A DNA stretch of 64,000 nucleotides from Candidatus Omnitrophota bacterium (lineage in GTDB: Bacteria; Omnitrophota; Gorgyraeia; Zapsychrales; Fredricksoniimonadaceae), in the NCBI GenBank assembly GCA_028865345.1, contig JAGWKL010000002.1:665-64664 (forward strand), read 5' to 3'. Below the pieces are notes generated by a model. That model worked only from the letters and a program-made list of their open reading frames with translations, searched no databases and was not told the DNA's origin. Below are positions 30,604-46,144 of this stretch, piece after piece. Each line of letters starts with the position of its first letter. Positions within the stretch are counted from its first letter, which is position 1. The translations under genes and the position numbers were made by a program.

Positions 30604-33600
30604 TTAGCGATCTCCCTGCGTCATAGAGCCCCCCAAAAATGCCCCTAAATCCTTCATCGGCTGAATGTCGATGATCACCGGCACGAAACCTGGGGCATTT
30701 TGCAGACGGGTGAGCATGGCAGGATCCATATGGAAATTAATGCCTTGGCCCGCATGTTGTGTCTGCAAATCCATGTGGGCGGCGGTCAGATCAATACCTC
30801 CGGTGGGAGTCATGGATTGATCGGCGTGCGCCATGGCAATTTTATCCATAAGTTGCCGGGCCATGAGTATCGCTCTGTGTTGATCAATAAAATTTGGGCT
30901 TGTCACGATAGAAACCGCTTTAGCCTTAACGGCCATTTGAGCTATTTTGTCCAGCATAGTTTCGACTTCAGCATTGGAATAGCCGTTAAATACGTCGAGA
31001 TCGACATCCACCAGATCATAAGGCTTTTCCTGCGGATCAATGGATGAGCCTGGTTGAGCGGCGTATCGCACCGGCCCTTCGTCGATCATTTGCACGGCAC
31101 GCAAAGTGTCCAGATTATAAAGCCAATGCCAATAAGGCAGGCCGCTTTTATCTGAAGCTATGAAACCTTCCTTAACAAAGGGAGCTATAAAACCTTCTAT
31201 ACCAAGGACATTTTGGGCATAACGATCAGCCTCGATGAGCTTGTCCGTGTTTTCCCCAAGAAACCCGCCGGAGCTATTATAACGGCGGGTAATCCGTGCA
31301 TCAGGGTGTGCATCAATATGCAATAAACTTAACCCCTTTTGAAGCATCCCTTGCCTCAACATCAACCACCAAAAGGTAAAGACATTGCTGTGATCGTCGG
31401 AAATAAAAACCATGGGGCCTTTTTTAAGATCGATCAAAACTTTTTTCGTTAGTCCGTAGATGGTCCCGTCCTTCGCCGTTGCGCCCTTGATCAGTTGTCC
31501 TCCCATCTTATCAGACCAGCCATCAACAATGTCCCAATCCGTGATGCCGGAGGCATTTATAGAAGAAAAACCCGCCTCTGCGAAACTCTTGAGAGACACC
31601 TTCATGGCACTGTCCTTTTTAATTTTAGGCTTTGGGGCCAATAAAACCAGGGCCTTTCCGTTGGAGAAATCACGGTTTGCGTTTTGGACGATGGTGTAAT
31701 TAAACCGGCCTGGGGCGGAATTTAATTCAGCAAGAGTGTCTACAACTTGAGCCGCTTTCCCCAAAGAAGTATATTGAACAAAGGAAGTGTCCATCATCAA
31801 TGCAGAAATAAACCCCCGGTTAAAATTTTCTAAATCAAAATGCTCAGCAGCCTCTTCTTTTGTCAAAAGGTCCCCCACATCAATCACAACCATCCTGTCG
31901 GTCCCCCCGGCCGATCCAACATCTACCAAAAAACCATTAGGCTTCATGACAAAACCCCGGGCCAACAATTTCTTATATAACTTAAAATAGCCGTTTAACA
32001 GAGTGTCTATTTTTTGGTGTAAAACATCAGGATCATCCTGATAAATTCTTCTTAAACTCCTTATCCGATCCAGCAACGGGACAACTTCTTGCTGTACGAC
32101 GGCATGGGGGACCCTGATGATGTGTCCGCCCACATTGACGTCCAGGTCCTTAAAAACGAGATACCCGGCCGCCAAGGGGCCCAAACGCTCCTGATATTCA
32201 TCATATTTTGACCAAACCTGAGGATCAGTGACACCCTTGACGACAATATCACGCCCTTCGACATTCCCTTTATAGACCACTGATTCCACTCCTCCGGCAA
32301 ATTTAATCAACGGGTGGTCTCTCAATTGGGAACGCAACACATTCTTTAACGCCTCCAGGCCGGTATCCTGCGCTTTTGAAGCCATGGCATTATCTTTGAT
32401 CTCCAGTTCGATGCCATGGCCCTTATCTTGGGGAACTAAATATTCATACTCCTCTGCAAAGCCGCCGAACCGCGTATCATCAGCGACTATCGCCGTGATC
32501 TTTCCGCCGCTCTTTTTGATGCCGAAAAAGAAATTGTGACTGCCGGCGAGGCCCACATTGACCTCATGGGTTTGTATATGGCGCGCTTGGAAGGCCTCCT
32601 TGACATTGGGCAATATTTGCGAGTAGCTGTCGATCAAATTCACCATTTCGGGCCTGGGCCCCAATCTTCCCAGGAAAAGCCCGACCTGGTTGTCCAGATC
32701 GTCGAGGTCTTCATTAAAGAAATGGGCGATAGACATTTTGCCCTCGCGGTCAATCACGACCGCCACCACGCAATCCCCCATTTCGACGGCATCTGTCCAA
32801 AACACGCCGTTAGTGGCGCCGATGACCGCCGTACGCTCGGATATTTCATGGCCGACAAATTCCTTACCCGTCGACAAATTCATCAAATTGATGTCCGGCT
32901 CAGGCGGGACATGAGATTTCAGATAGGAGTACTCGATCCCCAACGCGCCGGCAAAGGCCAGCGAAACGGCTATGACTTTAAGGGATTTGGGGACAGTCAT
33001 GGCCGCATTGGGCATTTGGTCCGTATACCGTATGACTTGATTTGCCTTCATGGCCAAATCAAACTTCACCCCTCCGGAAAAATATTTTCTCGGGACCATT
33101 TGCCGTGTCAGGGGGTCCCGTTTTTCCTCGATATAATTATAGACGCCTTTTTTAAACGCCTGCAGGTAACGCCGGTAAATTGCCTCCACCCGTAAGGGGC
33201 CGTTGAAGCCCACACCTGCCACTTTATTTTTACCGGCATAAGCTTGTGCCAGGATACTCTTTTTTATTTTCATCTTATACCAGGTAGCCAGGATCAAAGA
33301 ATTATAAACCTGACGCAAGACGGCAAAATTTTCATCTTCATTGACCTCCCTGGTCAATTCAGGGATGACGATTTCACGGATGACCTGACTCCCCAATTGA
33401 TTGGTGCCTCGGGCAACGGCCGCAGCACCCGACCCTTCATGCTTTTCAAGTGACAAATAATCCTGGTCCAGCATGACCTTTAGCCTGCTGCTTATCACAT
33501 AGGCCGTTTGTGCCCCGGTATTTTCATAGACCACGGCTTTTTGGGGAAGTATCCAGACTTTGTTAAACGTGTTCACTGCAATATCGGTCGTCCCGTATTT

Positions 33601-34101
33601 TTTCCGGGCCTCTTCATAAACACGTTTCCAAAACTTTTTTCCGGTTTGTCCCTCGGGATAAATCAGGCTGGCGGTGACCTGTTTAAGCAGGTAATCTTCA
33701 GCCAATAAATCACGGCCCATCCGTGTTGAACCAAAAGAAGGCGGGATGATCCTGTCTTTTTCATAAGGGCTTAAATTGACCCACAGGTCCTCTTCCGGGA
33801 CGGTCAATGATGCCAGGAAGTATTGGACCAGCCTGGCAGCTTCCCGTTTCAGCCCCTCCCTTCCTTCAGGATACTGGTCCCCCTGATCCAAAATAAAGTC
33901 GAATCTCAGAGGATCATCAGGATAAACTTTTATTCCTTTGAGGATGGGAGGCTCAAGAGGAGGACTTAAATGGACCATGACGCCGGGGGCAGGCAGACGC
34001 CATTCATCCGCCCGGGCCATGGGGATCGGCCCCATGACAAGCGTTACAAAAAAAGACAAAATGGTCAATACGCATATAGGGGACTTTGGGGTTTGGTTCA
34101 T
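30604..34101 (-). CDS. Large secreted multidomain protein (about 1165 aa) with a C-terminal ureohydrolase (arginase/deacetylase)-like domain.
   Basis: I set the start at MNQTPK, which carries a signal peptide. The C-terminal region has arginase-family metal-binding motifs in order: SDDHS, HIDAHPD and DVDLDVF. The first roughly 800 aa are unrecognised. Confidence 0.6.
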   Translation of the reverse strand: MNQTPKSPICVLTILSFFVTLVMGPIPMARADEWRLPAPGVMVHLSPPLEPPILKGIKVYPDDPLRFDFILDQGDQYPEGREGLKREAARLVQYFLASLTVPEEDLWVNLSPYEKDRIIPPSFGSTRMGRDLLAEDYLLKQVTASLIYPEGQTGKKFWKRVYEEARKKYGTTDIAVNTFNKVWILPQKAVVYENTGAQTAYVISSRLKVMLDQDYLSLEKHEGSGAAAVARGTNQLGSQVIREIVIPELTREVNEDENFAVLRQVYNSLILATWYKMKIKKSILAQAYAGKNKVAGVGFNGPLRVEAIYRRYLQAFKKGVYNYIEEKRDPLTRQMVPRKYFSGGVKFDLAMKANQVIRYTDQMPNAAMTVPKSLKVIAVSLAFAGALGIEYSYLKSHVPPEPDINLMNLSTGKEFVGHEISERTAVIGATNGVFWTDAVEMGDCVVAVVIDREGKMSIAHFFNEDLDDLDNQVGLFLGRLGPRPEMVNLIDSYSQILPNVKEAFQARHIQTHEVNVGLAGSHNFFFGIKKSGGKITAIVADDTRFGGFAEEYEYLVPQDKGHGIELEIKDNAMASKAQDTGLEALKNVLRSQLRDHPLIKFAGGVESVVYKGNVEGRDIVVKGVTDPQVWSKYDEYQERLGPLAAGYLVFKDLDVNVGGHIIRVPHAVVQQEVVPLLDRIRSLRRIYQDDPDVLHQKIDTLLNGYFKLYKKLLARGFVMKPNGFLVDVGSAGGTDRMVVIDVGDLLTKEEAAEHFDLENFNRGFISALMMDTSFVQYTSLGKAAQVVDTLAELNSAPGRFNYTIVQNANRDFSNGKALVLLAPKPKIKKDSAMKVSLKSFAEAGFSSINASGITDWDIVDGWSDKMGGQLIKGATAKDGTIYGLTKKVLIDLKKGPMVFISDDHSNVFTFWWLMLRQGMLQKGLSLLHIDAHPDARITRRYNSSGGFLGENTDKLIEADRYAQNVLGIEGFIAPFVKEGFIASDKSGLPYWHWLYNLDTLRAVQMIDEGPVRYAAQPGSSIDPQEKPYDLVDVDLDVFNGYSNAEVETMLDKIAQMAVKAKAVSIVTSPNFIDQHRAILMARQLMDKIAMAHADQSMTPTGGIDLTAAHMDLQTQHAGQGINFHMDPAMLTRLQNAPGFVPVIIDIQPMKDLGAFLGGSMTQGDR

Positions 34102-34175
34102 CTCTTTTAAAGTATGTAATATATTTAGATAAAAAACAAGGGTCAAAGAACAATAAAAATGGTAATATAACAGCC

Positions 34176-35915: not shown

Positions 35916-38321
35916 CTATATGCGCGCTTTGGCTGAAATACGCATTTCATAAAAGGAGCGGATCAAAAAGAACAGGGCAACGCCAAAAAAGACAACGGCA
36001 AGAAAAATGTCAAGCCCCCGGCCCAAACCAATGGCAATTTCAATGGCCAGCAACCCAAACAAGGTCGTAAATTTGATGATCGGATTGATGGCCACCGATG
36101 ATGTGTCTTTAAAAGGATCCCCCACCGTGTCCCCGACCACCGTTGCCGCATGTAATTCTGTGCCTTTTTCCTGATACGTCACTTCTACCAACTTTTTAGC
36201 ATTGTCCCACGCCCCGCCGGCGTTGGCCATGAAAATGGCTTGAAAAAGGCCGAAAACGGCAATGGAGATCAGATAGCCTATGAAGAAATACGGCTCCAGA
36301 CAGGCGAAAGCAAGGGTCATAAAAAGCACGGCCACGAAAATATTGATCATCCCCTTTTGGGCGAACATCGTACAAATTTCTACGACCCTTGTACTGTCCT
36401 GTTTGGAGGATCTGTCTGTTCCTTCCAACTTGATATGTTCCTTGATATACTGCACAGTATGATAAGCCCCTGTGGTCACCGCCTGAATGGAGGCGCCGGA
36501 AAACCAGAAGATCATGCCCCCGCCGCTTAAAAGCCCGAGCAACAAAGGCGGATAAAGCACCGACATGTTCTCCATATGCACTGTGAGGCCGCGGGTTAAT
36601 ATCATAATGATAGAAAAAATCATGGTGGTGGCGCCAACCACGGCTGTCCCGATCAACACCGGCTTTGAAGTGGCCTTAAAGGTGTTCCCCGCCCCGTCAT
36701 TGGCTTCCAGATGATGTTTGGCAAGCTCGAAATTCGGCGTAAAACCGCTGGTCTTTGCGATTTCTTCCTTAATATTCGGAATGGCCTCGACAAGAGAGAG
36801 TTCATAAATCGACTGCGCGTTGTCGGAAACAGGCCCATAAGAATCAACGGCAATGGTGACTGCCCCCATCCCTAAAAATCCGAACGCCACCAGGCCAAAG
36901 GCAAACACCGCGGGTGCTATCATGATGGCATCCAACCCCATTAAACTGACAAAATAGCCTAAAGCCATCAGGACCACGATCACCAGCCCCATCCAATACG
37001 CGCTGTAATTCCCCGCCACCAGCCCGGAAAGGATATTCAGCGAGGTGCCACCCTTTTTGGAGCATTCGTAAATGTTCTTCACAAAATCCGAATTCATGGA
37101 TGTAAAGACCTTGATCCCCTCCGGAATGACGGCACCGGCCAAGGTGCCGCAGGTGATGATGGTGGCCAGCTTCCACCAAAACGTACCGTCCCCCAAATTC
37201 GGGATAAGGACATAGGAGGCCACATAGGTCAGGATGATCGAAAAAATCGAGGTGATCCATACCAGGGAGGTCAAGGGATCTTCAAAGTTCATTTCTTTAG
37301 CATTGGCATAGCGCCTTTTGGCAAAAAAATGGTTGATTTCATAAGAAAAACCGCTGGCGATCAGCATGATCAAACGCATGGAAAAGATCCAAACCAGGAG
37401 CTCTGCCTGGACCTGCGGATTTTTGACGGCCAAGAGAATAAAAGCGATGAGCGCCACTCCGGTCACCCCGTAGGTCTCGAAACCGTCCGCCGTGGGCCCA
37501 ACCGAGTCCCCCGCATTGTCCCCCACGCAATCGGCGATGACCCCCGGATTGCGCGCGTCGTCCTCCTTGATATTAAAAACGATCTTCATGAGATCAGACC
37601 CGATGTCCGCAATTTTTGTAAAAATGCCGCCTGCGATCCTCAGAACGGAGGCGCCCAACGATTCACCGATGGCAAAACCGATAAAACATGGGCCGGCATA
37701 GTTGGGATTAATAAAAAGAAGAATGCATAACATGACAAAAAGTTCAATGCTGATAAGGAGCATGCCGATGCTCATGCCCGCCTGCAAAGGAATGGAATAG
37801 ACCGGAAATGGTTTGCCTTCCAGGCTCGCAAAGGCGCAACGCGAATTCGCCAGGGTGTTGATCCTCATGCCAAACCAGGCGACACTATAGCTTCCGGCGA
37901 TACCGATGAGACTGCAGACTAAAATAAGAGCGACCCTGCCGGCGTCAAAATGGCGCAGCCAGCCGAAATAGGCCACCATGACACCCCCGATCAGGACCTC
38001 CAAAACCAGCAGGAACTTCCCCTGGGCAATAAGATATGCTTTACAGGTCGAATAAATGAGCTCGGAGATCTCTTTCATGCTTTGATGCACCGGCATCTTT
38101 TTCAATTGCCCGAACTGATAGATACCAAAAAATGCCCCGAAAGCGCAGACAATAAGACCTAACATCAATGCGGTGTGGCCGTTTAAGTGAAAAATAAGAG
38201 GAACCGAGGATAAATCAGGCACTATCAGGTCTGATTCGCCCGCCCAAGCTCCCGGAAGACCCAGAAAAAATGCCATGAACGTTAAAAGTCCAAGTCTATA
38301 AAACTTCTGACGACGGCTCAT
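35916..38321 (-). CDS. hppA: Membrane-bound H+-translocating pyrophosphatase, copy 1.
   Basis: H+-PPase signatures are present (GVIADCVGDNAGDSVGPTADGFETYGVTGVALI, DGAGNTFKATSKPV, DNAGGAWDNAKK). The GNTFKA motif has Lys rather than Ala, which suggests the K+-independent subtype. Confidence 0.9.
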   Translation of the reverse strand: MSRRQKFYRLGLLTFMAFFLGLPGAWAGESDLIVPDLSSVPLIFHLNGHTALMLGLIVCAFGAFFGIYQFGQLKKMPVHQSMKEISELIYSTCKAYLIAQGKFLLVLEVLIGGVMVAYFGWLRHFDAGRVALILVCSLIGIAGSYSVAWFGMRINTLANSRCAFASLEGKPFPVYSIPLQAGMSIGMLLISIELFVMLCILLFINPNYAGPCFIGFAIGESLGASVLRIAGGIFTKIADIGSDLMKIVFNIKEDDARNPGVIADCVGDNAGDSVGPTADGFETYGVTGVALIAFILLAVKNPQVQAELLVWIFSMRLIMLIASGFSYEINHFFAKRRYANAKEMNFEDPLTSLVWITSIFSIILTYVASYVLIPNLGDGTFWWKLATIITCGTLAGAVIPEGIKVFTSMNSDFVKNIYECSKKGGTSLNILSGLVAGNYSAYWMGLVIVVLMALGYFVSLMGLDAIMIAPAVFAFGLVAFGFLGMGAVTIAVDSYGPVSDNAQSIYELSLVEAIPNIKEEIAKTSGFTPNFELAKHHLEANDGAGNTFKATSKPVLIGTAVVGATTMIFSIIMILTRGLTVHMENMSVLYPPLLLGLLSGGGMIFWFSGASIQAVTTGAYHTVQYIKEHIKLEGTDRSSKQDSTRVVEICTMFAQKGMINIFVAVLFMTLAFACLEPYFFIGYLISIAVFGLFQAIFMANAGGAWDNAKKLVEVTYQEKGTELHAATVVGDTVGDPFKDTSSVAINPIIKFTTLFGLLAIEIAIGLGRGLDIFLAVVFFGVALFFLIRSFYEMRISAKARI

Positions 38322-38435: not shown

Positions 38436-40193
38436 TTATTGTTGAATAACACGCAGGAATTCTTTGGCGGCTTCCGCAGGGCCGTTGCGCTCCCAGCCGG
38501 AAAGCCCCAGGCGGGTGCGGAGCAATCCCACAAAAACCCCGGCCTTAAAGAAAGCGTCAAAATATTTCTTCGCCAATTGCTCATGAAGTTCCTTGTACTG
38601 GACAGGACCGAAAACATTGGCGAAATAGGAGTGGACTATCCCGCTTGAAGTGGTGGTGCCTTTGCTCATCACTGTCCCATCCCGGAAGATCTTGATGGCA
38701 GATTCGGACGTTTTCAACTTCTCAATGATGGGATGATCATCATCAATATCTTCATAATTGTTGGCATACAGGATAAAATCAACCTGGTGGCCTTTGATCA
38801 GATTATTAAAGGTGGTGACCGGCAGAATGATGCGCGCGTTGACCTGGTTGGCGTTCATGATGATGGCGCGGTCGATCTGCCCAAGGGCATAACCGGGCTG
38901 CAGGTCGTCCAGGCGCAGGAAAGCGCCGATCTCCGTCCCTCGGCCCATGACTTTTCCCTGCGCTGACAAAGCCAAGGATCCCATGTCGTCCGCAATAACG
39001 ATAATATCCTGGATGTAAAGGTCCCCCAAGGTGCGGAATGCCTCCAACGTTTCCGATTTTCCGGCCCCTGTGTCCCCCATCAATAAAACGGTAACGTCTT
39101 TATCGCCCTTAAGGATGATGCGCACCATGGCCCCGTGAAAAGGCAGGTGCCCCATTTTCATGATCTTGATGTTATGGAGCGTCAGGATCATTTTCTTCAA
39201 ATAACCGAAATAACCGAATTCGTCGCGGCCGGGGACCGCGCCGACCAAAAGACCGTTTCTTTCATCATCGAAGAAAACCGTCGGCATCTTGCTAAGACCG
39301 TCCAATACCGCGCCCGGAACCCCAAAAGCAAAAACCGCATCAGGGACGCGTTCCAAATCCTTGTCATCTGCCATTTCGAAAAGATTGCACAGCGAAAGAC
39401 CGAGTTCGAAAAACATTTTATGGAAATAAACCAGGACAATGAGCGGCCCCACCTTGGCCGGATAACACAGCCATTCATCCTTGTCGAAATCAAACAAGTC
39501 CATGGGGTTCTGCGCCACGCGTTCGAATTTTCCCGTACGCTTGTTCATCGGCGTATCCAGTATCAAAGGCGGATACAGAAGCACCTGCCGGATGATGGGC
39601 ACCCCCCGCAATTTTTCATAAACACCGGAAGGCAAATTCAATTTCCGCTGGGAAGTGATCACCCCGACTTCGGCGCCGGCAATGACCTGCCGGTAAATAC
39701 GCGGGTGTTGTTTGGTCAAATTCTCGGCAATATCGCGGTAGGTCCCCCGGATGAGGTGGCTCAACGGTTCGACCACATTATTGAAGGTGCGGTAAGGCCT
39801 TTGATCCAGGTCACGGCCTGCCGAATCACAGACGACAAAACGCTCCAGGGAGCGCCAATAGTTGTAAAGATATTCAATAAAATCATTGAGCAGGAACTTG
39901 TCTTGCAAAAGCACCTCTGATCCTGGAACTGCGCCAGGCAGAAGGTCTGCGGAATTCTTGCTCAAAAACTTGAAACTCCTGATAATGAGATCGATCTCAT
40001 CCTTATCTGCAGGCTTGTCGGCGTGGAATATATTTAAAAGAATGGAATTCTTGTGCTTGAGCTCCGCCATGCAGTCGCCCAGCACCCTCTTGAACAATTC
40101 GCTGTTAAGGACATCCTCCGTGGTGAAACAGACCTTATCATTAAAATGGATGATGACCTTGTTGCCGTGAATATCGAAATGGGAATTATTCAT
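38436..40193 (-). CDS. HprK-like P-loop kinase domain protein with a large uncharacterised N-terminal domain.
   Basis: The C-terminal region HGAMVRIILKGDKDVTVLLMGDTGAGKSETLEAF...IVIADDMG matches the HPr kinase/phosphorylase C-domain core (HG..V.GxGVLxxGxSGxGKSE ... ADD). The roughly 370 aa N-terminal domain has no recognisable motif. Confidence 0.55.
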   Translation of the reverse strand: MNNSHFDIHGNKVIIHFNDKVCFTTEDVLNSELFKRVLGDCMAELKHKNSILLNIFHADKPADKDEIDLIIRSFKFLSKNSADLLPGAVPGSEVLLQDKFLLNDFIEYLYNYWRSLERFVVCDSAGRDLDQRPYRTFNNVVEPLSHLIRGTYRDIAENLTKQHPRIYRQVIAGAEVGVITSQRKLNLPSGVYEKLRGVPIIRQVLLYPPLILDTPMNKRTGKFERVAQNPMDLFDFDKDEWLCYPAKVGPLIVLVYFHKMFFELGLSLCNLFEMADDKDLERVPDAVFAFGVPGAVLDGLSKMPTVFFDDERNGLLVGAVPGRDEFGYFGYLKKMILTLHNIKIMKMGHLPFHGAMVRIILKGDKDVTVLLMGDTGAGKSETLEAFRTLGDLYIQDIIVIADDMGSLALSAQGKVMGRGTEIGAFLRLDDLQPGYALGQIDRAIIMNANQVNARIILPVTTFNNLIKGHQVDFILYANNYEDIDDDHPIIEKLKTSESAIKIFRDGTVMSKGTTTSSGIVHSYFANVFGPVQYKELHEQLAKKYFDAFFKAGVFVGLLRTRLGLSGWERNGPAEAAKEFLRVIQQ

Positions 40194-40275: not shown

Positions 40276-41175
40276 TTATTTTAGGGAAACACCGAAACCT
40301 TTGAGGTGCCGTATCCAGCCGGCCATGAATTTGGCCCGGTCCATGACAATGCTGTCTTCTATTTGTCCCTGGACCGTTCCTTCTAACTTAAACGATTTCG
40401 CGCTTAAGTTCTTCAGTACATACCGGATGGCGGGTTGGGTTTGTTGATAAAAGGTGTTCAGGCGCTCGTCGATGACCTCCGGCCTGTCATCCTCCCGTAT
40501 TTCCGCGGGGCGGTTCTCCAAAGCAGCTTTGGAGATCTCTTGGGCTATCCGCATTTGAGCGCGTTGTTTGAAGACCGTATCCTGTTTGCGGGGGATGTGC
40601 GCATGGACATACAAATCAACGGCCAGCGGCTTGCCTTGCCACAGAATCTTGCCCGACTGCAGTATTTTTACCTGTTCTAAATTCCGGGGAAAACCGTCGA
40701 AGAATAACCCAAAGGCCTTATTGTAGGGTTCTGTTTTCAAAACAGCGGTGACCACATTAATGACGGTCTCATCGCTGATCATTTTGCCGGCTTTCATTTC
40801 GGCCAAATCCCGGTCGGTCACAAAAGAAAGGAAAGGGCCGTATTTTTCCAGGTCTTCCGCAGAGGCGCTGCCGGGGTCTTTCCTGATTTTTAATATCTTC
40901 CTGAAATAACCGCCCAGGACCAGGGTTTCATACCGTGAACCTTCAGGCAAGAATTTATTAAGTTCTTTAATCAACCAGGCGGACAAAGTGCCTTTGCCGC
41001 AACCGGCTTTGCCTAAGATCGTAAAAATACGCACCTTGCCGATAAACTGTTTTATCGCATCTTTGATAAGGTTTTGAACGGCCGTATCTTTATTCGATTC
41101 CGGGTGCCGCAAAACCATGAACATGCGGTTTCTGATCGCTGAGGACACACGGCAGACCACTTTTAGTTTACGCAT
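40276..41175 (-). CDS. Adenylate-kinase-family protein with an N-terminal extension.
   Basis: It has the P-loop GKAGCGKGT, the FDGFPRNLEQV motif and a LID-like R..DDRPEVIDERLNTFYQQTQP. Adk proteins are typically around 215 aa, so this 299 aa protein appears to be an extra paralog outside the usual secY-adk context. Confidence 0.6.
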   Translation of the reverse strand: MRKLKVVCRVSSAIRNRMFMVLRHPESNKDTAVQNLIKDAIKQFIGKVRIFTILGKAGCGKGTLSAWLIKELNKFLPEGSRYETLVLGGYFRKILKIRKDPGSASAEDLEKYGPFLSFVTDRDLAEMKAGKMISDETVINVVTAVLKTEPYNKAFGLFFDGFPRNLEQVKILQSGKILWQGKPLAVDLYVHAHIPRKQDTVFKQRAQMRIAQEISKAALENRPAEIREDDRPEVIDERLNTFYQQTQPAIRYVLKNLSAKSFKLEGTVQGQIEDSIVMDRAKFMAGWIRHLKGFGVSLK

Positions 41176-41245: not shown

Positions 41246-41509
41246 TTACTGACGGGAGCTCAGGCAGGTGCACTGGGGAGGTGAAAACATAGGCCACTTA
41301 AATTCGTAACCGGCATATCCTGCCTGCGTGCATTTGTTCTCGCAAGCCGTAGTTTGAACGCCTGATTGCTGGTACTTCTGATAGGCATTATAGAACAGCC
41401 AGGCGATAACAGGGATGCAGATGACCGATACGATCAGCGGGCGCCAGGAATGGTCTTGCGCTTTATGGGGTTGGGACAAATCGCTCATATTTTCAGTATA
41501 AAGGCTCAT
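41246..41509 (-). CDS. Small single-TM protein with a Cys-rich C-terminus, hypothetical.
   Basis: 87 aa. The TM helix IVSVICIPVIAWLFY is followed by C-x3-C and C-x-C (ACENKCTQ...QCTCLSS). Confidence 0.3.
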   Translation of the reverse strand: MSLYTENMSDLSQPHKAQDHSWRPLIVSVICIPVIAWLFYNAYQKYQQSGVQTTACENKCTQAGYAGYEFKWPMFSPPQCTCLSSRQ

Positions 41510-41576: not shown

Positions 41577-43973
41577 TTAAGCTGAAATACGCATCTCGTA
41601 AAAAGACCGGACCAAAAAGAACACGGCAACTGTAAAAAAAACAGCCGCCAAAAATATATCCAGCCCCCGGCTTAACCCGATGGCGATCTCAATGGCCAGT
41701 AAGCCGAACAATGTCGTGAATTTGATGATCGGATTGATGGCCACAGATGAAGTGTCTTTAAACGGGTCCCCCACCGTGTCTCCCACCACCGTCGCCGCAT
41801 GCAATTCAGTGCCTCTCTCTTGGTATGTGACTTCCACGAGCTTCTTGGCATTGTCCCATGCTCCGCCGGCATTGGCCATGAAAATGGCCTGAAAGAACCC
41901 GAAGGCGGCAATGGAGATCAAATACCCTATAAAAAAATACGGCTCCAGGCAGGCAAAGGCGAGAGTGGTAAAAAGGACGGTCACGAAAATATTGATCATG
42001 CCTTTTTGGGCGAATACCGTGCAAATTTCCACCACCTTTTTGCTGTCCTTGGTGGAAGCCCTGCCTTCCTGGTCCAGCTTTATGTTTTCTTTGATGTATT
42101 GCACGGTGTGGTAGGCGCCGGTGGTCACCGCCTGGATGGAAGCCCCGGAAAACCAATAGATCATGCCGCCCCCGCTCAAGAGCCCAAGCAGGAATGGAGG
42201 ATAAAGTACGGATAAATTTTCCATATGGACCGTAAGGCCGCGGGTCAATATCATGATGATGGAAAAGATCATGGTGGTGGCCCCCACCACGGCCGTTCCG
42301 ATCAAAACAGGCTTGGCTGTGGCTTTAAAAGTGTTGCCTGCGCCGTCATTGGATTCCAGATGGTGCTTGGCAAGCTCAAAGTCAGGCGTAAAGCCATGGT
42401 CCCTGATGATCTCCTCTTTGATATGAGGAAGGGTCTCGATGAGAGAAAGCTCATAAATGGATTGTGCATTGTCGGAAACCGGCCCATAGGAATCAACGGC
42501 AATGGTGACCGGCCCCATGCCCAAAAATCCAAACGCCACCAGGCCAAAAGCAAACACCGCCGGTGCGATCATAATGGCATTCAGGCCAAGAGTACTGATA
42601 AAAGAAGCAACGGCCATCAGGACCACAATGACCACCCCCATCCAGTGGGCGCTGTAATTCCCCGCCACCAAGCCTGATAGGATATTAAGAGAAGCCCCTC
42701 CTTTTTTGGAGCTTTGATAAATGTTCTTCACAAAATCTGAATTCAAGGAAGTAAACACCTTGGTCCCCTCCGGTATGACCGCTCCTGCCATGGTGCCGCA
42801 GCTGATGATGGCGGCGAGTTTCCACCAGTAGGTGCCATCACCCAAAGATCGTATGAGGGCAAAAGAAGCCAGGAAAACCAGGGCGATCGATACGATGGAG
42901 GTGATCCACACCAGGGATGTCAACGGCGCTTCGAAATCCATGGTGTGAGTTTTTAAATAGCGCCTTTTGGCAAAAAAATTATTGATCTCGTAGGAAAGGC
43001 CGCTGGCGATGATCATGATGGTGCCGATGAAAAATATCCACACCAACAGCCTGGCCTGAACCAGGGGATTTTTAACAGCCAAAAGAATAAAGGAAATAAG
43101 CGCCACCCCGGTCACGCCGTAGGTCTCAAAAGCATCCGCCGTAGGACCCACCGAGTCGCCGGCATTGTCTCCCACGCAATCGGCGACCACCCCGGGATTA
43201 CGCGCGTCGTCTTCCTTGATGTTAAAAGCGATCTTCATGAGATCGGCGCCGATGTCCGCAATTTTGGTAAAGATCCCTCCGGCGACCCTCAGCACAGACG
43301 CGCCCAACGATTCACCAATGGCAAAACCGATAAAGCAAGGGCCGGAATAATCGGGGTTGATAAAAAGGATGATGCTTAACATGACGAAAAGTTCCGTGCT
43401 TATCAACAACATGCCGATGCTCATACCCGCCTGCAGGGGAATGGAATAAACGGGAAAGGGTTTGCCTGCAAGGCTTGCGAAAGCGCACCGGGCATTGGCC
43501 TTGCCGTTGATCCTCATGCCGAACCATGCCACGGCATAGCTTCCGGCGATGCCGATCAGGCTGCAGACTAAAATAAGAACGACTTTGTCGGCGTCAAAAT
43601 GCCGCAGCCATCCGAAATAGGCCACCATGACAGCACCGATCAAAACTTCCAGGGCAAGCAAAAACTTTCCCTGGGCGATGAGATAGGTTTTGCAGGTCGT
43701 ATAAATGAGCCGGGAGATATCTTCCATGCTTTTATGCACGGGCATTTTCTTCAAACGTGCGTACTGGTACATTCCGAAAAAGATGCCGAAAATGCATACC
43801 AAAAGCCCCAAGATGAGGGTCCTGCGGCCGTCCAAACCAAAAATGCCGGGTACAGCGGACAAATCCGGAACCTTCAAATCCGCCTCACCGGCCCATGCCG
43901 GCGAAACACCTGAAAAGAATGCCGCAAAAATTACAAACCAGGATTTACAGACCCCCGTCCACCGATTCTTCAT
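41577..43973 (-). CDS. hppA: Membrane-bound H+-translocating pyrophosphatase, copy 2 (paralog of 35916-38321).
   Basis: It has the same motifs as copy 1 and is collinear along its full length. Sampled aligned nucleotide stretches are about 88% identical. There is a ribosome-binding site 23 nt downstream of tRNA-Ser. Confidence 0.9.
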   Translation of the reverse strand: MKNRWTGVCKSWFVIFAAFFSGVSPAWAGEADLKVPDLSAVPGIFGLDGRRTLILGLLVCIFGIFFGMYQYARLKKMPVHKSMEDISRLIYTTCKTYLIAQGKFLLALEVLIGAVMVAYFGWLRHFDADKVVLILVCSLIGIAGSYAVAWFGMRINGKANARCAFASLAGKPFPVYSIPLQAGMSIGMLLISTELFVMLSIILFINPDYSGPCFIGFAIGESLGASVLRVAGGIFTKIADIGADLMKIAFNIKEDDARNPGVVADCVGDNAGDSVGPTADAFETYGVTGVALISFILLAVKNPLVQARLLVWIFFIGTIMIIASGLSYEINNFFAKRRYLKTHTMDFEAPLTSLVWITSIVSIALVFLASFALIRSLGDGTYWWKLAAIISCGTMAGAVIPEGTKVFTSLNSDFVKNIYQSSKKGGASLNILSGLVAGNYSAHWMGVVIVVLMAVASFISTLGLNAIMIAPAVFAFGLVAFGFLGMGPVTIAVDSYGPVSDNAQSIYELSLIETLPHIKEEIIRDHGFTPDFELAKHHLESNDGAGNTFKATAKPVLIGTAVVGATTMIFSIIMILTRGLTVHMENLSVLYPPFLLGLLSGGGMIYWFSGASIQAVTTGAYHTVQYIKENIKLDQEGRASTKDSKKVVEICTVFAQKGMINIFVTVLFTTLAFACLEPYFFIGYLISIAAFGFFQAIFMANAGGAWDNAKKLVEVTYQERGTELHAATVVGDTVGDPFKDTSSVAINPIIKFTTLFGLLAIEIAIGLSRGLDIFLAAVFFTVAVFFLVRSFYEMRISA

Positions 43974-43996
43974 AACTCCCTTTCTTTATTTAAGAA

Positions 43997-44081
43997 CGGA
44001 GAGGGTGAGATTCGAACTCACGGCCCCTTGCGAGGCAACGGTTTTCAAGACCGCCGCATTCGACCACTCTGCCACCTCTCC
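43997..44081 (-). tRNA. tRNA-Ser (anticodon UGA), type II with a long variable arm.
   Basis: Folded by hand: acceptor GGAGAGG/CCTCTCC; anticodon stem GCGGT/ACCGT with loop CUUGAAA (anticodon UGA); long variable arm; T-arm GTGAG-TTCGAAT-CTCAC; discriminator G. No CCA end is encoded. Confidence 0.8.
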
Positions 44082-44157
44082 AAAATTTAAAGAAATAATT
44101 TGGGCGTATACATAAAAAAGGATATATTAACAAAAGGTCCAAATCTTAACAAGAAAT

Positions 44158-45508: not shown

Positions 45509-46144
45509 TTAGAACCTGCTTAAGGGGATCAAATCCGCAAAGTAAATGCAACGGGCGATGTCCGTGAGTTTCAATAATTGGGCAAGCCGGGCCAGGCCCA
45601 CTCCCTGGGACAATAATCGCCGGGCTAACACATAACGGGGCGTTTCTTTCGGCGGACGCGACGGAGGCCAGGGCAATAAACGCAGATGCAAACAGGGATT
45701 GTCATTGATAAAACCCAATGTAATGCCGAATTCCAGGACATCTCTTATCAAAAGCAGTGTCAGATTAAGGACCCTTGGGCGTAGTGCTCCGGCCAAACAA
45801 CGCTTGTATGATTCCAAAATGCCGGGTGATATTTGGGCCAGCCGGACGACCTGAGGGAAATCTGATTTAAGAAAACCGCTGAAATGTTCGATGGCGGCGG
45901 CGAAACGTCCGACCGTTCTGGAACTCTGCTGTTTCTGTATCTCGTCGATAAAACGCCCGAAAAAATCCGCCAGGTCGATATGACGGTCGATCGTCAGGGC
46001 CTCGCCGTGGGCGATTTTCTCTTCAACCTGGAATAATAGCCTTTGGGCTTGCTCCAAATCACCGCCGGCCATTTGGGAATAAAGCAGGCCACGGGCATGG
46101 AACTCGATATAGTAAACACCGTTGACCTTACGGATTTGACCCAT
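45509..46144 (-). CDS. Truncated tyrosine integrase: N-terminal arm-binding and core-binding (SAM-like) domains only, no catalytic domain.
   Basis: MGQIRKVNGVYYIEF is an arm-type DNA-binding N-terminus. It is followed by a core-binding-like helical domain. The ORF ends about 60 aa later, before the R-K-H-R-H-Y catalytic residues would appear. Confidence 0.45.
   Translation of the reverse strand: MGQIRKVNGVYYIEFHARGLLYSQMAGGDLEQAQRLLFQVEEKIAHGEALTIDRHIDLADFFGRFIDEIQKQQSSRTVGRFAAAIEHFSGFLKSDFPQVVRLAQISPGILESYKRCLAGALRPRVLNLTLLLIRDVLEFGITLGFINDNPCLHLRLLPWPPSRPPKETPRYVLARRLLSQGVGLARLAQLLKLTDIARCIYFADLIPLSRF

Follow-up and report, generated by a model that had tools for sequence, protein, structure and literature searches.

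Here, we address the question of what kind of enzyme is encoded at positions 38436..40193 of a 64,000-nucleotide stretch of DNA from a Candidatus Omnitrophota bacterium (the whole of which we refer to as the window). The preliminary description, made from the sequence alone, read the product as an HPr kinase (HprK) catalytic core fused to a large uncharacterised N-terminal domain, an architecture that it considered unlike phosphoenolpyruvate (PEP) carboxykinase (PEPCK), and tentatively linked it to a small Cys-rich peptide encoded nearby. The gene and its neighbours are the following:

35916..38321, minus strand: membrane H+-pyrophosphatase (H+-PPase) copy A, 801 aa (Pfam H_PPase, E 1.7e-179)
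38436..40193, minus strand: gene of the PEPCK-fold protein, 585 aa, an ATG-to-stop ORF (100% identical database protein, MDE1920482.1)
40276..41175, minus strand: divergent adenylate-kinase-like (Adk-like) NMP kinase, 299 aa (Pfam ADK, E 5.8e-15)
41246..41509, minus strand: ORF of 87 aa (80 aa in the public record), with four Cys and a single transmembrane helix
41577..43973, minus strand: membrane H+-PPase copy B, 798 aa, 84% identical to copy A

The ORF at 38436-40193 is a genuine gene, as attested by the identical GenBank protein MDE1920482.1, automatically named 'phosphoenolpyruvate carboxykinase', and by more than 5,900 full-length homologs in the databases. Nearly all of these are ~550-600 aa long and align to the protein end to end, with 59-82% identity over 98-100% of its length. 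They come from Omnitrophota, Planctomycetota, Bacteroidales, Sporomusaceae, Atribacterota and other groups, form 744 clusters at 50% identity, full length with few exceptions, and occupy at least 571 loci in species-representative genomes; the N-terminal and C-terminal halves are found together throughout the family. Identity of ~60% across phyla indicates constraint such as is typically seen in enzymes of central metabolism. The NCBI and UniProt pipelines name the family 'phosphoenolpyruvate carboxykinase', and no curated family model in Pfam or NCBIfam reaches its cutoff for the protein. No solved structure of any member was found, and our literature search recovered no biochemical study of the family; a heliobacterium genome paper carries a 'PEP carboxykinase-like' mention that is an annotation remark only (PMC13209566). 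This is a large, strongly conserved family, distinct both from HPr kinase/phosphorylase (HprK/P) and from the PEPCKs of the ATP, GTP and PPi types.

An AlphaFold model of the protein built from a deep alignment reached a pLDDT of 92.4 and a pTM of 0.91, replacing a first run on 21 close homologs (pLDDT 68.7). When this model was compared with the PDB using Foldseek, all 50 matches listed were PEPCKs, the best being the ATP-PEPCK of T. thermophilus (1j3b; E 6e-16, 463 aligned columns), with TM-scores of 0.47/0.52, the latter normalised to the length of the query; across the solved PEPCKs, identity was 11-18% and TM-scores were ~0.4-0.5. It is therefore the whole chain, and not the C-terminal P-loop part alone, that resembles PEPCK, and we hold the assignment to the PEPCK fold and superfamily to be highly probable. 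As modelled, the protein is a single conserved PEPCK-fold enzyme and not a fusion, so that both the domain fusion and the dissimilarity to PEPCK claimed in the preliminary description have to be given up. The product would be a soluble two-domain enzyme of ~66 kDa.

At the sequence level, PEPCK and HprK models score about equally on the protein: 12.2 bits against a cutoff of 26.5 for Pfam PF01293 (PEPCK_ATP) and 18.5 bits against 369 for the NCBIfam PEPCK subfamily model NF006821, compared with 14.7 bits against 33.3 for Hpr_kinase_C (PF07475; E 0.022, profile positions 9-68 of 171) and 15.1 bits against 240 for TIGR00679. The NCBIfam scan at E<=1 reported just the PEPCK subfamily model and TIGR00679, and the HprK_C, PEPCK_ATP and DUF4914 matches are all confined to the level of the P-loop. 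What had been taken for an HprK catalytic core is thus a similarity of the P-loop region, far below the HprK_C cutoff and shared with PEPCK models. Searching the PDB by sequence, whether with the protein alone or with a profile of 79 sequences, returned P-loop noise only (PEPCK 1j3b, E 0.58; HprK 1jb1, E 0.81). Profile alignment with hhalign reached further, pairing residues 262-530 with residues 148-431 of E. coli PckA at E 6.7e-5, or 1.8e-4 against a PckA profile, with modest probabilities of 48-64%. Residues 352-407 read FHGAMVRIILKGDKDVTVLLMGDTGAGKSETLEAFRTLGDLYIQDIIVIADDMGSL, so that the HG, GDTGAGKSE and IADD motifs quoted in the preliminary description are indeed present, and its placement of an uncharacterised protein within the HprK/PEPCK P-loop superfamily stands. 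The candidate active-site segments are the following:

39192..39212, minus strand: YFGYLKK, residues 328-334, aligned by hhalign with E. coli PckA Y207-G-G-E-M-K212-K213
39132..39137, minus strand: H353-G354, aligned by hhalign (profile-profile) with PckA H232 (Mn2+ ligand), also the histidine of the HprK 'HG'
39051..39077, minus strand: P-loop GDTGAGKSE, residues 373-381, with K379/S380 as the equivalents of PckA K254/T255
38985..38990, minus strand: D402-D403, at the end of the hydrophobic strand IIVIADD (IADD, residues 400-403), assigned to PckA D268/D269
38913..38933, minus strand: EIGAFLR, residues 421-427, proposed to correspond to PckA E282-G-G-C-Y-A-K288 (phosphate-binding lysine)
38832..38840, minus strand: N452-A-R454, aligned by hhalign with PckA N331-T-R333 (arginine contacting the substrate and the gamma-phosphate)
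38652..38663, minus strand: KGTT, residues 511-514, placed by hhalign opposite the PckA lid segment A-G-T-E-R-G (392-397)

Conservation of these residues was counted among 79 family members. PckA residues Y207, G209, K212, K213, H232, K254, T255, N331 and R333 are all placed by hhalign on positions conserved in 72-78 of the 79. Within YFGYLKK, the tyrosine, the glycine and the two lysines are kept in 77, 77, 78 and 72 members, respectively, and the Y-x-G-x-x-K-K spacing is that of ATP-type PEPCK. H353 is conserved in 73 members, K379 in 78 and S380 in 75, with GDSGAGKSE as the P-loop consensus of the family, and the spelling of the P-loop in the Omnitrophota protein is nearer to that of HprK (GxSGxGKSE) than to that of ATP-PEPCK (GLSGTGKTT). 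D402 and D403 are nearly as constant (75/79 and 76/79); their equivalence to D268/D269 is tentative because it follows the logic of the hhhhDD motif, hhalign placing the gap differently. The proposed counterpart of the K288 segment comes from a manual motif match off the hhalign path, although E421, G423, F425 and R427 are conserved in 77, 79, 76 and 75 of the 79 members. N452 (75/79), R454 (74/79), T513 (73/79) and T514 (72/79) complete the pattern. In PckA itself, Y207 is the CO2/enolate tyrosine and the same motif supplies the Mn2+-ligand lysine, and D268/D269 are metal-ligand and catalytic residues. Judged from these alignments, the family keeps the PEPCK catalytic set, namely, K379/S380, the predicted Mn2+ ligands K334, H353 and D403, Y328 and R454.

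The N-terminal two thirds of the protein indeed match no curated model, as had been noted, but this supposedly unknown region carries the PEPCK-specific Y-x-G-x-x-K-K segment. Its outermost part is a separate matter:

39846..40193, minus strand: residues 1-116, a beta-hairpin and helical bundle according to the secondary structure of the AlphaFold model

By length comparison, the N-terminal domain is ~120 aa longer than that of E. coli PckA, and residues 1-116 probably represent an extension of the PEPCK N-terminal domain that is specific to this family. The N-terminal 260 residues could not be reliably aligned to PckA by hhalign, low-stringency and global runs included, and therefore an equivalent of PckA Arg65, which binds the substrate carboxylate within G-R-S-P-x-D-K, was not located. 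A low-stringency hhalign match of 'QRPYRTF' to 'GRSPKDKY', the Arg65 loop of PckA, was dropped because only close homologs conserve this loop, which varies in the wider family.

Comparison with the known families places the protein closest to the ATP-PEPCKs (PckA, EC 4.1.1.49, PF01293; E. coli 1AQ2, T. thermophilus 1J3B), which share its two-domain fold, provide the best structural matches and have in common with it Y-x-G-x-x-K-K, the metal-binding His and Asp-Asp, the Lys and Ser/Thr of the P-loop, the arginine of N-x-R and a lid-like G-T-(T/E)-x-x-G segment, the last two mapped and conserved in the family. Nevertheless, identity to the ATP-PEPCKs is only 15-18%, the C-terminal domain is ~75 aa shorter, and the P-loop reads GDSGAGKSE in the family as opposed to GLSGTGKTT. 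HprK/P (PF07475, TIGR00679) belongs to the same P-loop superfamily and is near-identical in H-G ... G-D-S/T-G-x-G-K-S-E-t-l-E ... A-D-D, but is only ~310 aa long, has a different N-terminal domain and lacks counterparts of the PEPCK N-terminal domain and of the YxGxxKK Mn2+-site segment; in the 585-aa protein, the PEPCK-fold match includes the N-terminal part. The GTP-PEPCKs (PF00821/PF17297; rat cPEPCK, M. tuberculosis 4R43) have the same overall fold (Foldseek E ~2e-14) but lower TM-scores (0.40-0.44), and their Pfam models give no sequence-level match; they also differ from the family in the spacing of the Tyr...Lys-Lys segment and in the P-loop. DUF4914 (PF16260), for which no literature was found, has a similar model length (612) and matches weakly in the P-loop region (10.8-12.3 bits against a cutoff of 25.7, with 10.8 bits over 44 residues for the protein itself), and distant family members fare no better. 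PPi-PEPCKs (EC 4.1.1.38), at ~1,100-1,200 aa, are unrelated in size, and none appears among the 50 structural matches listed by Foldseek for the PDB.

Thus, what is the enzyme likely to do? Most likely, it is a metal-dependent small-molecule (carboxy)kinase acting at or near the PEP/oxaloacetate step, and we put the probability that its chemistry is that of this step at roughly 0.55. The P-loop would bind the phosphoryl donor, a small anionic acid would occupy the metal site between the two domains, and an enolate oxygen would accept or give up the phosphoryl group. The reaction would most likely be oxaloacetate + NTP <-> PEP + CO2 + NDP, or a close variant. In some genomes, this would be a second enzyme at the PEP/oxaloacetate step beside a canonical ATP-PEPCK. 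Indeed, a canonical pckA lies two genes upstream of the homolog, on the same strand, in two genomes (L034 and L074) and ~7 kb away in a third (L002), and this proximity in three Omnitrophota genomes implies that the protein is an additional and distinct enzyme that does not take the place of PckA. Alpha-glucan genes (GlgP, GlgB, GlgE, GH57) adjoin the homolog at four loci (L026, L039, L052 and L072), and at another (L017) it is separated by a few genes from a GlgB-like gene; the nearby pckA and alpha-glucan genes are compatible with carbon metabolism around gluconeogenesis. Among 80 named genomes and five further contexts surveyed, the neighbours are variable and no conserved gene partner was found outside Bacteroidales, where the homolog is a lone unit between opposite-strand genes. 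Around the cluster in the window, no riboswitch or other cis-regulatory RNA was detected, the sole real match being a tRNA, and promoter and terminator scans yielded nothing informative.

Several other readings have to be weighed against carboxykinase chemistry at the PEP/oxaloacetate step. A PEPCK-fold kinase that retained the metal and P-loop machinery while acting on a different small anionic molecule, such as some other 2-oxo or hydroxy acid or an alpha-glucan-linked sugar phosphate, which would be phosphorylated or decarboxylated and phosphorylated, is possible, although we consider it the less likely case. It would account for the N-terminal, substrate-binding domain being the most divergent and extended part of the protein, with arginines R118, R153, R168 and R219 conserved (73-76 of 79 sequences) where no Arg65 equivalent can be identified, and it accords with the glycogen and GlgE-pathway genes at the four loci mentioned above. 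The co-occurrence with canonical PckA likewise makes simple redundancy less likely and would allow for a different substrate or donor. However, the residue most closely tied to carboxykinase chemistry, the equivalent of Y207, is kept along with the full predicted Mn2+ site, and a conserved operon partner from another pathway was not found. At the opposite end of the scale is the HprK-type serine kinase of the preliminary description, equipped with a novel N-terminal domain and phosphorylating either a protein or a RiPP precursor (the 87-aa product, for instance), which we regard as very improbable. The Walker A motif, the helix that follows it and the DD motif are spelled as in HprK, Hpr_kinase_C matches weakly, and two genes away there is a small Cys-containing ORF. 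Against this stand the PEPCK fold over ~460 columns, the conserved YxGxxKK and predicted Mn2+ site, and the low scores of the HprK models; neither the HprK N-terminal regulatory domain (PF02603) nor the NCBIfam HprK-related kinase A/B models, which cover RiPP-cluster kinases, gave a match at E<=1. The 87-aa ORF matches no family in Pfam or NCBIfam and was rejected as a partner or substrate, given that it has no homolog at the 80 homolog loci or in the closest syntenic relative, a second MAG (L090) in which the rest of the cluster is kept; nor were RiPP maturation genes found near the gene, which in the family usually stands alone among variable neighbours. A protein- or peptide-kinase role is, accordingly, not supported. 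With no HprK regulatory domain and no characterised ortholog found, some of the novelty originally claimed for the gene remains, but it is of a different kind.

The flanking H+-PPases invite yet another interpretation, in which a PPi/Pi-using PEPCK-like enzyme would carboxylate PEP with Pi to oxaloacetate and PPi, or catalyse the reverse, with the membrane PPases turning PPi into proton-motive force and the NMP kinase balancing adenylates. In its favour, the gene lies between two paralogous H+-PPase genes and beside the Adk-like gene, in a cluster conserved in the second MAG at 73-89% protein identity; a PPase also adjoins the homolog in L002, and at a further locus (L089) a PPase adjoins Adk-like and Cytidylate_kin2 genes. 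Furthermore, the spelling of the P-loop resembles that in HprK/P, which uses PPi and also makes it by phosphorolysis, and the family occurs in anaerobes, PPi-dependent glycolysis being known in many of them. However, a PPase adjoins the gene only in the window, L002 and L090, and none was seen at the remaining 79 of the 80 homolog loci scanned, nor beside an 82% identical homolog (L001); in L002 it is on the opposite strand. The H+-PPase flanking thus recurs only in very close relatives, in one narrow Omnitrophota clade. The Adk-like gene, with only ~18 close homologs, adjoins a relative of the protein again in L090 and is missing from the 80 homolog loci; it is lineage-specific and not a conserved partner of the PEPCK-fold family. 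The sequence shows no feature separating PPi from NTP, and the known PPi-PEPCKs are of an entirely different size. We therefore consider the use of PPi improbable. Still less probable is the more far-reaching proposal that the family is a fourth, unrecognised class of PEPCK, with a core intermediate between PEPCK and HprK/P, a PPi/Pi or other non-ATP donor and a coupling to H+-PPases in anaerobes.

The public label 'phosphoenolpyruvate carboxykinase' has been assigned to the family without evidence of that activity. Because some genomes encode a member of the family next to a genuine PckA, metabolic reconstructions of anaerobes, among them Omnitrophota, Bacteroidales, Atribacterota and Sporomusaceae, may include PEPCK in duplicate or overlook a different reaction. 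Knowledge of the substrate and the donor would help to clarify the relationship between PEPCK and HprK/P. Should the enzyme be simply a second ATP-PEPCK, the result would be an ordinary one; should it represent a fourth class, it would point to PPi-based energy conservation operating beside an ordinary ATP-PEPCK in anaerobes such as this Omnitrophota lineage. Identifying the enzyme's substrate and donor would close a gap in anaerobic carbon metabolism at the PEP/oxaloacetate step.

The 585-aa protein is encoded by an ATG-to-stop ORF on the minus strand, at exactly the coordinates (38436-40193) assigned to it in the preliminary description, and the motifs quoted there are present (residues 352-407, FHGAMVRIILKGDKDVTVLLMGDTGAGKSETLEAFRTLGDLYIQDIIVIADDMGSL). 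Its portrayal as C-terminal HprK-like motifs preceded by an 'unknown' N-terminal part was fair at the sequence level: no curated model reached its cutoff, and PDB sequence searches yielded nothing significant. Hpr_kinase_C scored 14.7 bits (cutoff 33.3), PEPCK_ATP 12.2 (26.5), DUF4914 10.8 (25.7), the NCBIfam PEPCK model NF006821 18.5 (369) and TIGR00679, for HprK, 15.1 (240), all these matches being confined to the surroundings of the P-loop. Public pipelines already name the protein 'phosphoenolpyruvate carboxykinase' (PEPCK), as in the identical, automatically named entry MDE1920482.1, so that the assignment at the fold level is not new. A 261-aa antisense ORF within the gene (39135-39920, plus strand) was rejected as an artefact; comparable ORFs recur in 62 related loci as a mere consequence of the strong conservation of the sense strand.

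What had been taken for a fusion of two domains is, judging from sequence comparison, one conserved protein: homologs of ~550-600 aa align with it end to end, and both halves are conserved across the family. A search of ~5.8 billion proteins yielded >5,900 homologs, the best 120 of which are 539-615 aa long and share 59-100% identity with the query across 92-100% of its length, including proteins of Lucifera butyrica (Negativicutes) and Atrimonas thermophila (Atribacterota) with 60% identity. Such identity across phyla is at the level seen for central metabolic enzymes; the Omnitrophota PckA (canonical ATP-dependent PEPCK) used for comparison is 59% identical to E. coli PckA. Among 1.84 billion cluster representatives, a profile search matched 744 clusters, the intact ones ~550-600 aa long and matched end to end, and a scan of species-representative genomes revealed at least 571 places encoding the family. 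The carriers include Omnitrophota, Planctomycetota, Bacteroidales, Sporomusaceae (Pelosinus, Propionispora), Atribacterota, Spirochaetota, Syntrophorhabdus, Desulfobacteraceae, Anaerolineae and others, all of which we take to be anaerobes.

In superfamily and fold, the protein very probably belongs with PEPCK, although it falls outside the curated families of ATP-, GTP- and PPi-PEPCK, outside HPr kinase/phosphorylase (HprK/P) and outside DUF4914. PDB sequence searches, family models and the literature yielded no structure, curated family or paper for these proteins, which form, within the PEPCK/HprK superfamily, a large clade of uncharacterised proteins. Their P-loop, GDSGAGKSE, the next helix and the 'ADD' are spelled closer to HprK/P than to ATP-PEPCK (GLSGTGKTT...GDD), so that this region looks intermediate between the two. 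In profile alignments, residues 262-530 fall opposite residues 148-431 of PckA, whether the latter is represented by the E. coli protein (hhalign E 6.7e-5) or by a 31-sequence profile (E 1.8e-4), and the following residues correspond.

Residues of PckA, their equivalents in the 585-aa protein, and conservation of the latter among 79 aligned family members
Y207: Y328, 77/79
G209: G330, 77/79
K212: K333, 78/79
K213: K334, 72/79
H232: H353, 73/79
S250: T375, S in 51/79 and T in 23/79
K254: K379, 78/79
T255: S380, 75/79
N331: N452, 75/79
R333: R454, 74/79

The same alignments place 'CNLF' (residues 269-272) opposite 'KNMF' of PckA and 'KGTT(T/E)xxG' opposite its lid segment 'AGTERG'. Two further pairings are motif readings at which the hhalign gaps differ: D402/D403 (75/79 and 76/79), at the end of a hydrophobic strand like D268/D269 of PckA, and E421-x-G-x-F-x-R427, which resembles E282-x-G-x-Y-x-K288. 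In PEPCK, the catalytic Mn2+ is coordinated by K213, H232 and D269, and Y207 is placed over the enolate/CO2 site. Given that the segment with Y207 and K213 belongs to the part missing from HprK/P, its conservation is the strongest argument that the family would work like PEPCK rather than HprK; as far as sequence and model can be read, the protein does so. For the first 260 residues, no reliable alignment with PckA was obtained; at low stringency, 'TGRSPKDKY' of PckA (with Arg65) falls opposite 'LDQRPYRTF' (129-137), a loop conserved only among homologs with >59% identity and variable in the wider family. Other positions from which an anionic substrate could be bound are R118, R153, R168 and R219, each conserved in 73-76 of the 79 sequences. 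The sequence gives no indication of the phosphoryl donor.

In the window, the gene belongs to a co-directional row of six features with intergenic gaps of 67-114 bp.

43996-44082, minus strand: tRNA-Ser(TGA), first in the row, with PPase B next downstream
41577-43973, minus strand: H+-pyrophosphatase (H+-PPase) B, 798 aa
41246-41509, minus strand: 87-aa ORF, annotated publicly with 80 aa
40276-41175, minus strand: Adk-like kinase, 299 aa
38436-40193, minus strand: the PEPCK-like protein, 585 aa
35916-38321, minus strand: H+-PPase A, 801 aa

The PPases are paralogs (84% identical) bracketing a three-gene insert. By eye, both carry GNTFKATSK in place of the GNTTAAIGK of K+-dependent H+-PPases, which suggests the K+-independent type. 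The divergent Adk-like protein is extended at its N-terminus and carries an insertion behind the P-loop; among ~5.8 billion proteins, its close homologs (69-100% identity) number only ~18, the next matches being ordinary adenylate kinases at 29%. The 87-aa ORF, whose product would have a single transmembrane helix and, at the C-terminus, a segment with four Cys, has no family match and no homolog at any related locus; it is perhaps a small orphan membrane protein, perhaps no gene at all. A 211-aa ORF of unknown function (45509-46144, minus strand) lies after the tRNA gene.

Neither the peptide gene nor the Adk-like gene occurs in any of 80 loci surveyed around homologs of the PEPCK-like gene, and a PPase is found near the homolog in only one of these (L002; 81% identical homolog), on the opposite strand. 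Among loci found from the Adk-like gene, a second Omnitrophota MAG (L090, GCA_028870995.1) has PPase B, Adk-like gene, PEPCK-like gene and PPase A, and beyond them a response regulator and a histidine kinase, the cluster proteins being 73-89% identical to their window counterparts; the place of the peptide is taken by two unrelated small genes, DUF5985 and DUF4423, on the other strand. L089 has the Adk-like gene, a Cytidylate_kin2 gene and a PPase without the PEPCK-like gene, and L088 the Adk-like gene alone. Thus, the PPase/NMP-kinase/PEPCK-like cluster, to which the peptide does not belong, is a trait of a single narrow clade within the Omnitrophota.

Outside this clade, the homolog usually stands by itself among variable neighbours (80 loci and further contexts), sitting between opposite-strand genes in 32 Bacteroidales loci. 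In two Omnitrophota loci (L034, 5681-9740; L074, 5718-9737), a canonical ATP-PEPCK gene (product 59% identical to E. coli PckA), a CxxCxxCC gene (PF03692) and the PEPCK-like gene follow one another in this order, from upstream to downstream, head to tail on one strand, overlapping or with very short gaps, much as in an operon. The CxxCxxCC gene also immediately precedes the homolog in L012, L015 and L019, and another canonical ATP-PEPCK lies ~7 kb away in L002. Alpha-glucan genes (GlgP, GlgB, GlgE, GH57) adjoin the homolog in L026, L039, L052 and L072; L055 shares the GH57 neighbourhood of L052, and L017 has a GlgB-like gene a few genes away. Both the pckA and the alpha-glucan neighbours point to carbon metabolism around gluconeogenesis as the setting of the protein, and the former also show that it is not simply the one PEPCK that the organism has. 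The pckA of L002 (130-1472) and the H+-PPase gene of L089 (9521-11576) are each split into several short ORFs, probably through assembly frameshift errors rather than as pseudogenes. The N-terminal ~360 aa of a secreted-looking 1,180-aa window protein with a UPF0489/FlmR_OhkR_N domain (30604-34146, minus strand) recur at ~50% identity in large proteins near homologs in other Omnitrophota loci (L015, 10101-11180; L016, 13034-14059; L034, 963-1940 and 10551-11675), probably reflecting synteny within the phylum.

The best supported reading is that of a phosphotransferase for small molecules that depends on metal, has the fold and catalytic set of PEPCK, and most probably serves as a second enzyme beside PckA, at the PEP/oxaloacetate step or close to it; we put PEPCK-type chemistry at that step at about 0.55. 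A different anionic substrate is a serious, if clearly less probable, alternative, given that the divergence of the protein lies in its substrate domain and that a true PckA coexists with it. The most interesting option, a PPi-linked variant working with the flanking H+-PPases, appears improbable: it draws on the HprK-like P-loop and on an H+-PPase neighbourhood restricted to one lineage. The protein or RiPP kinase envisaged in the preliminary description, with the 87-aa peptide as a tentative partner, is very unlikely and found no support, given that HprK models scored far under threshold, no HprK-related kinase model matched even at E<=1, the predicted fold is that of PEPCK, no RiPP enzymes lie nearby, and the peptide does not accompany the gene, being absent from all 80 homolog loci and replaced in the syntenic L090. 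The PEPCK-like protein could still prove to be no more than a second PEPCK of the ordinary kind. Being widespread, well conserved and found alongside PckA, it merits enzymology.
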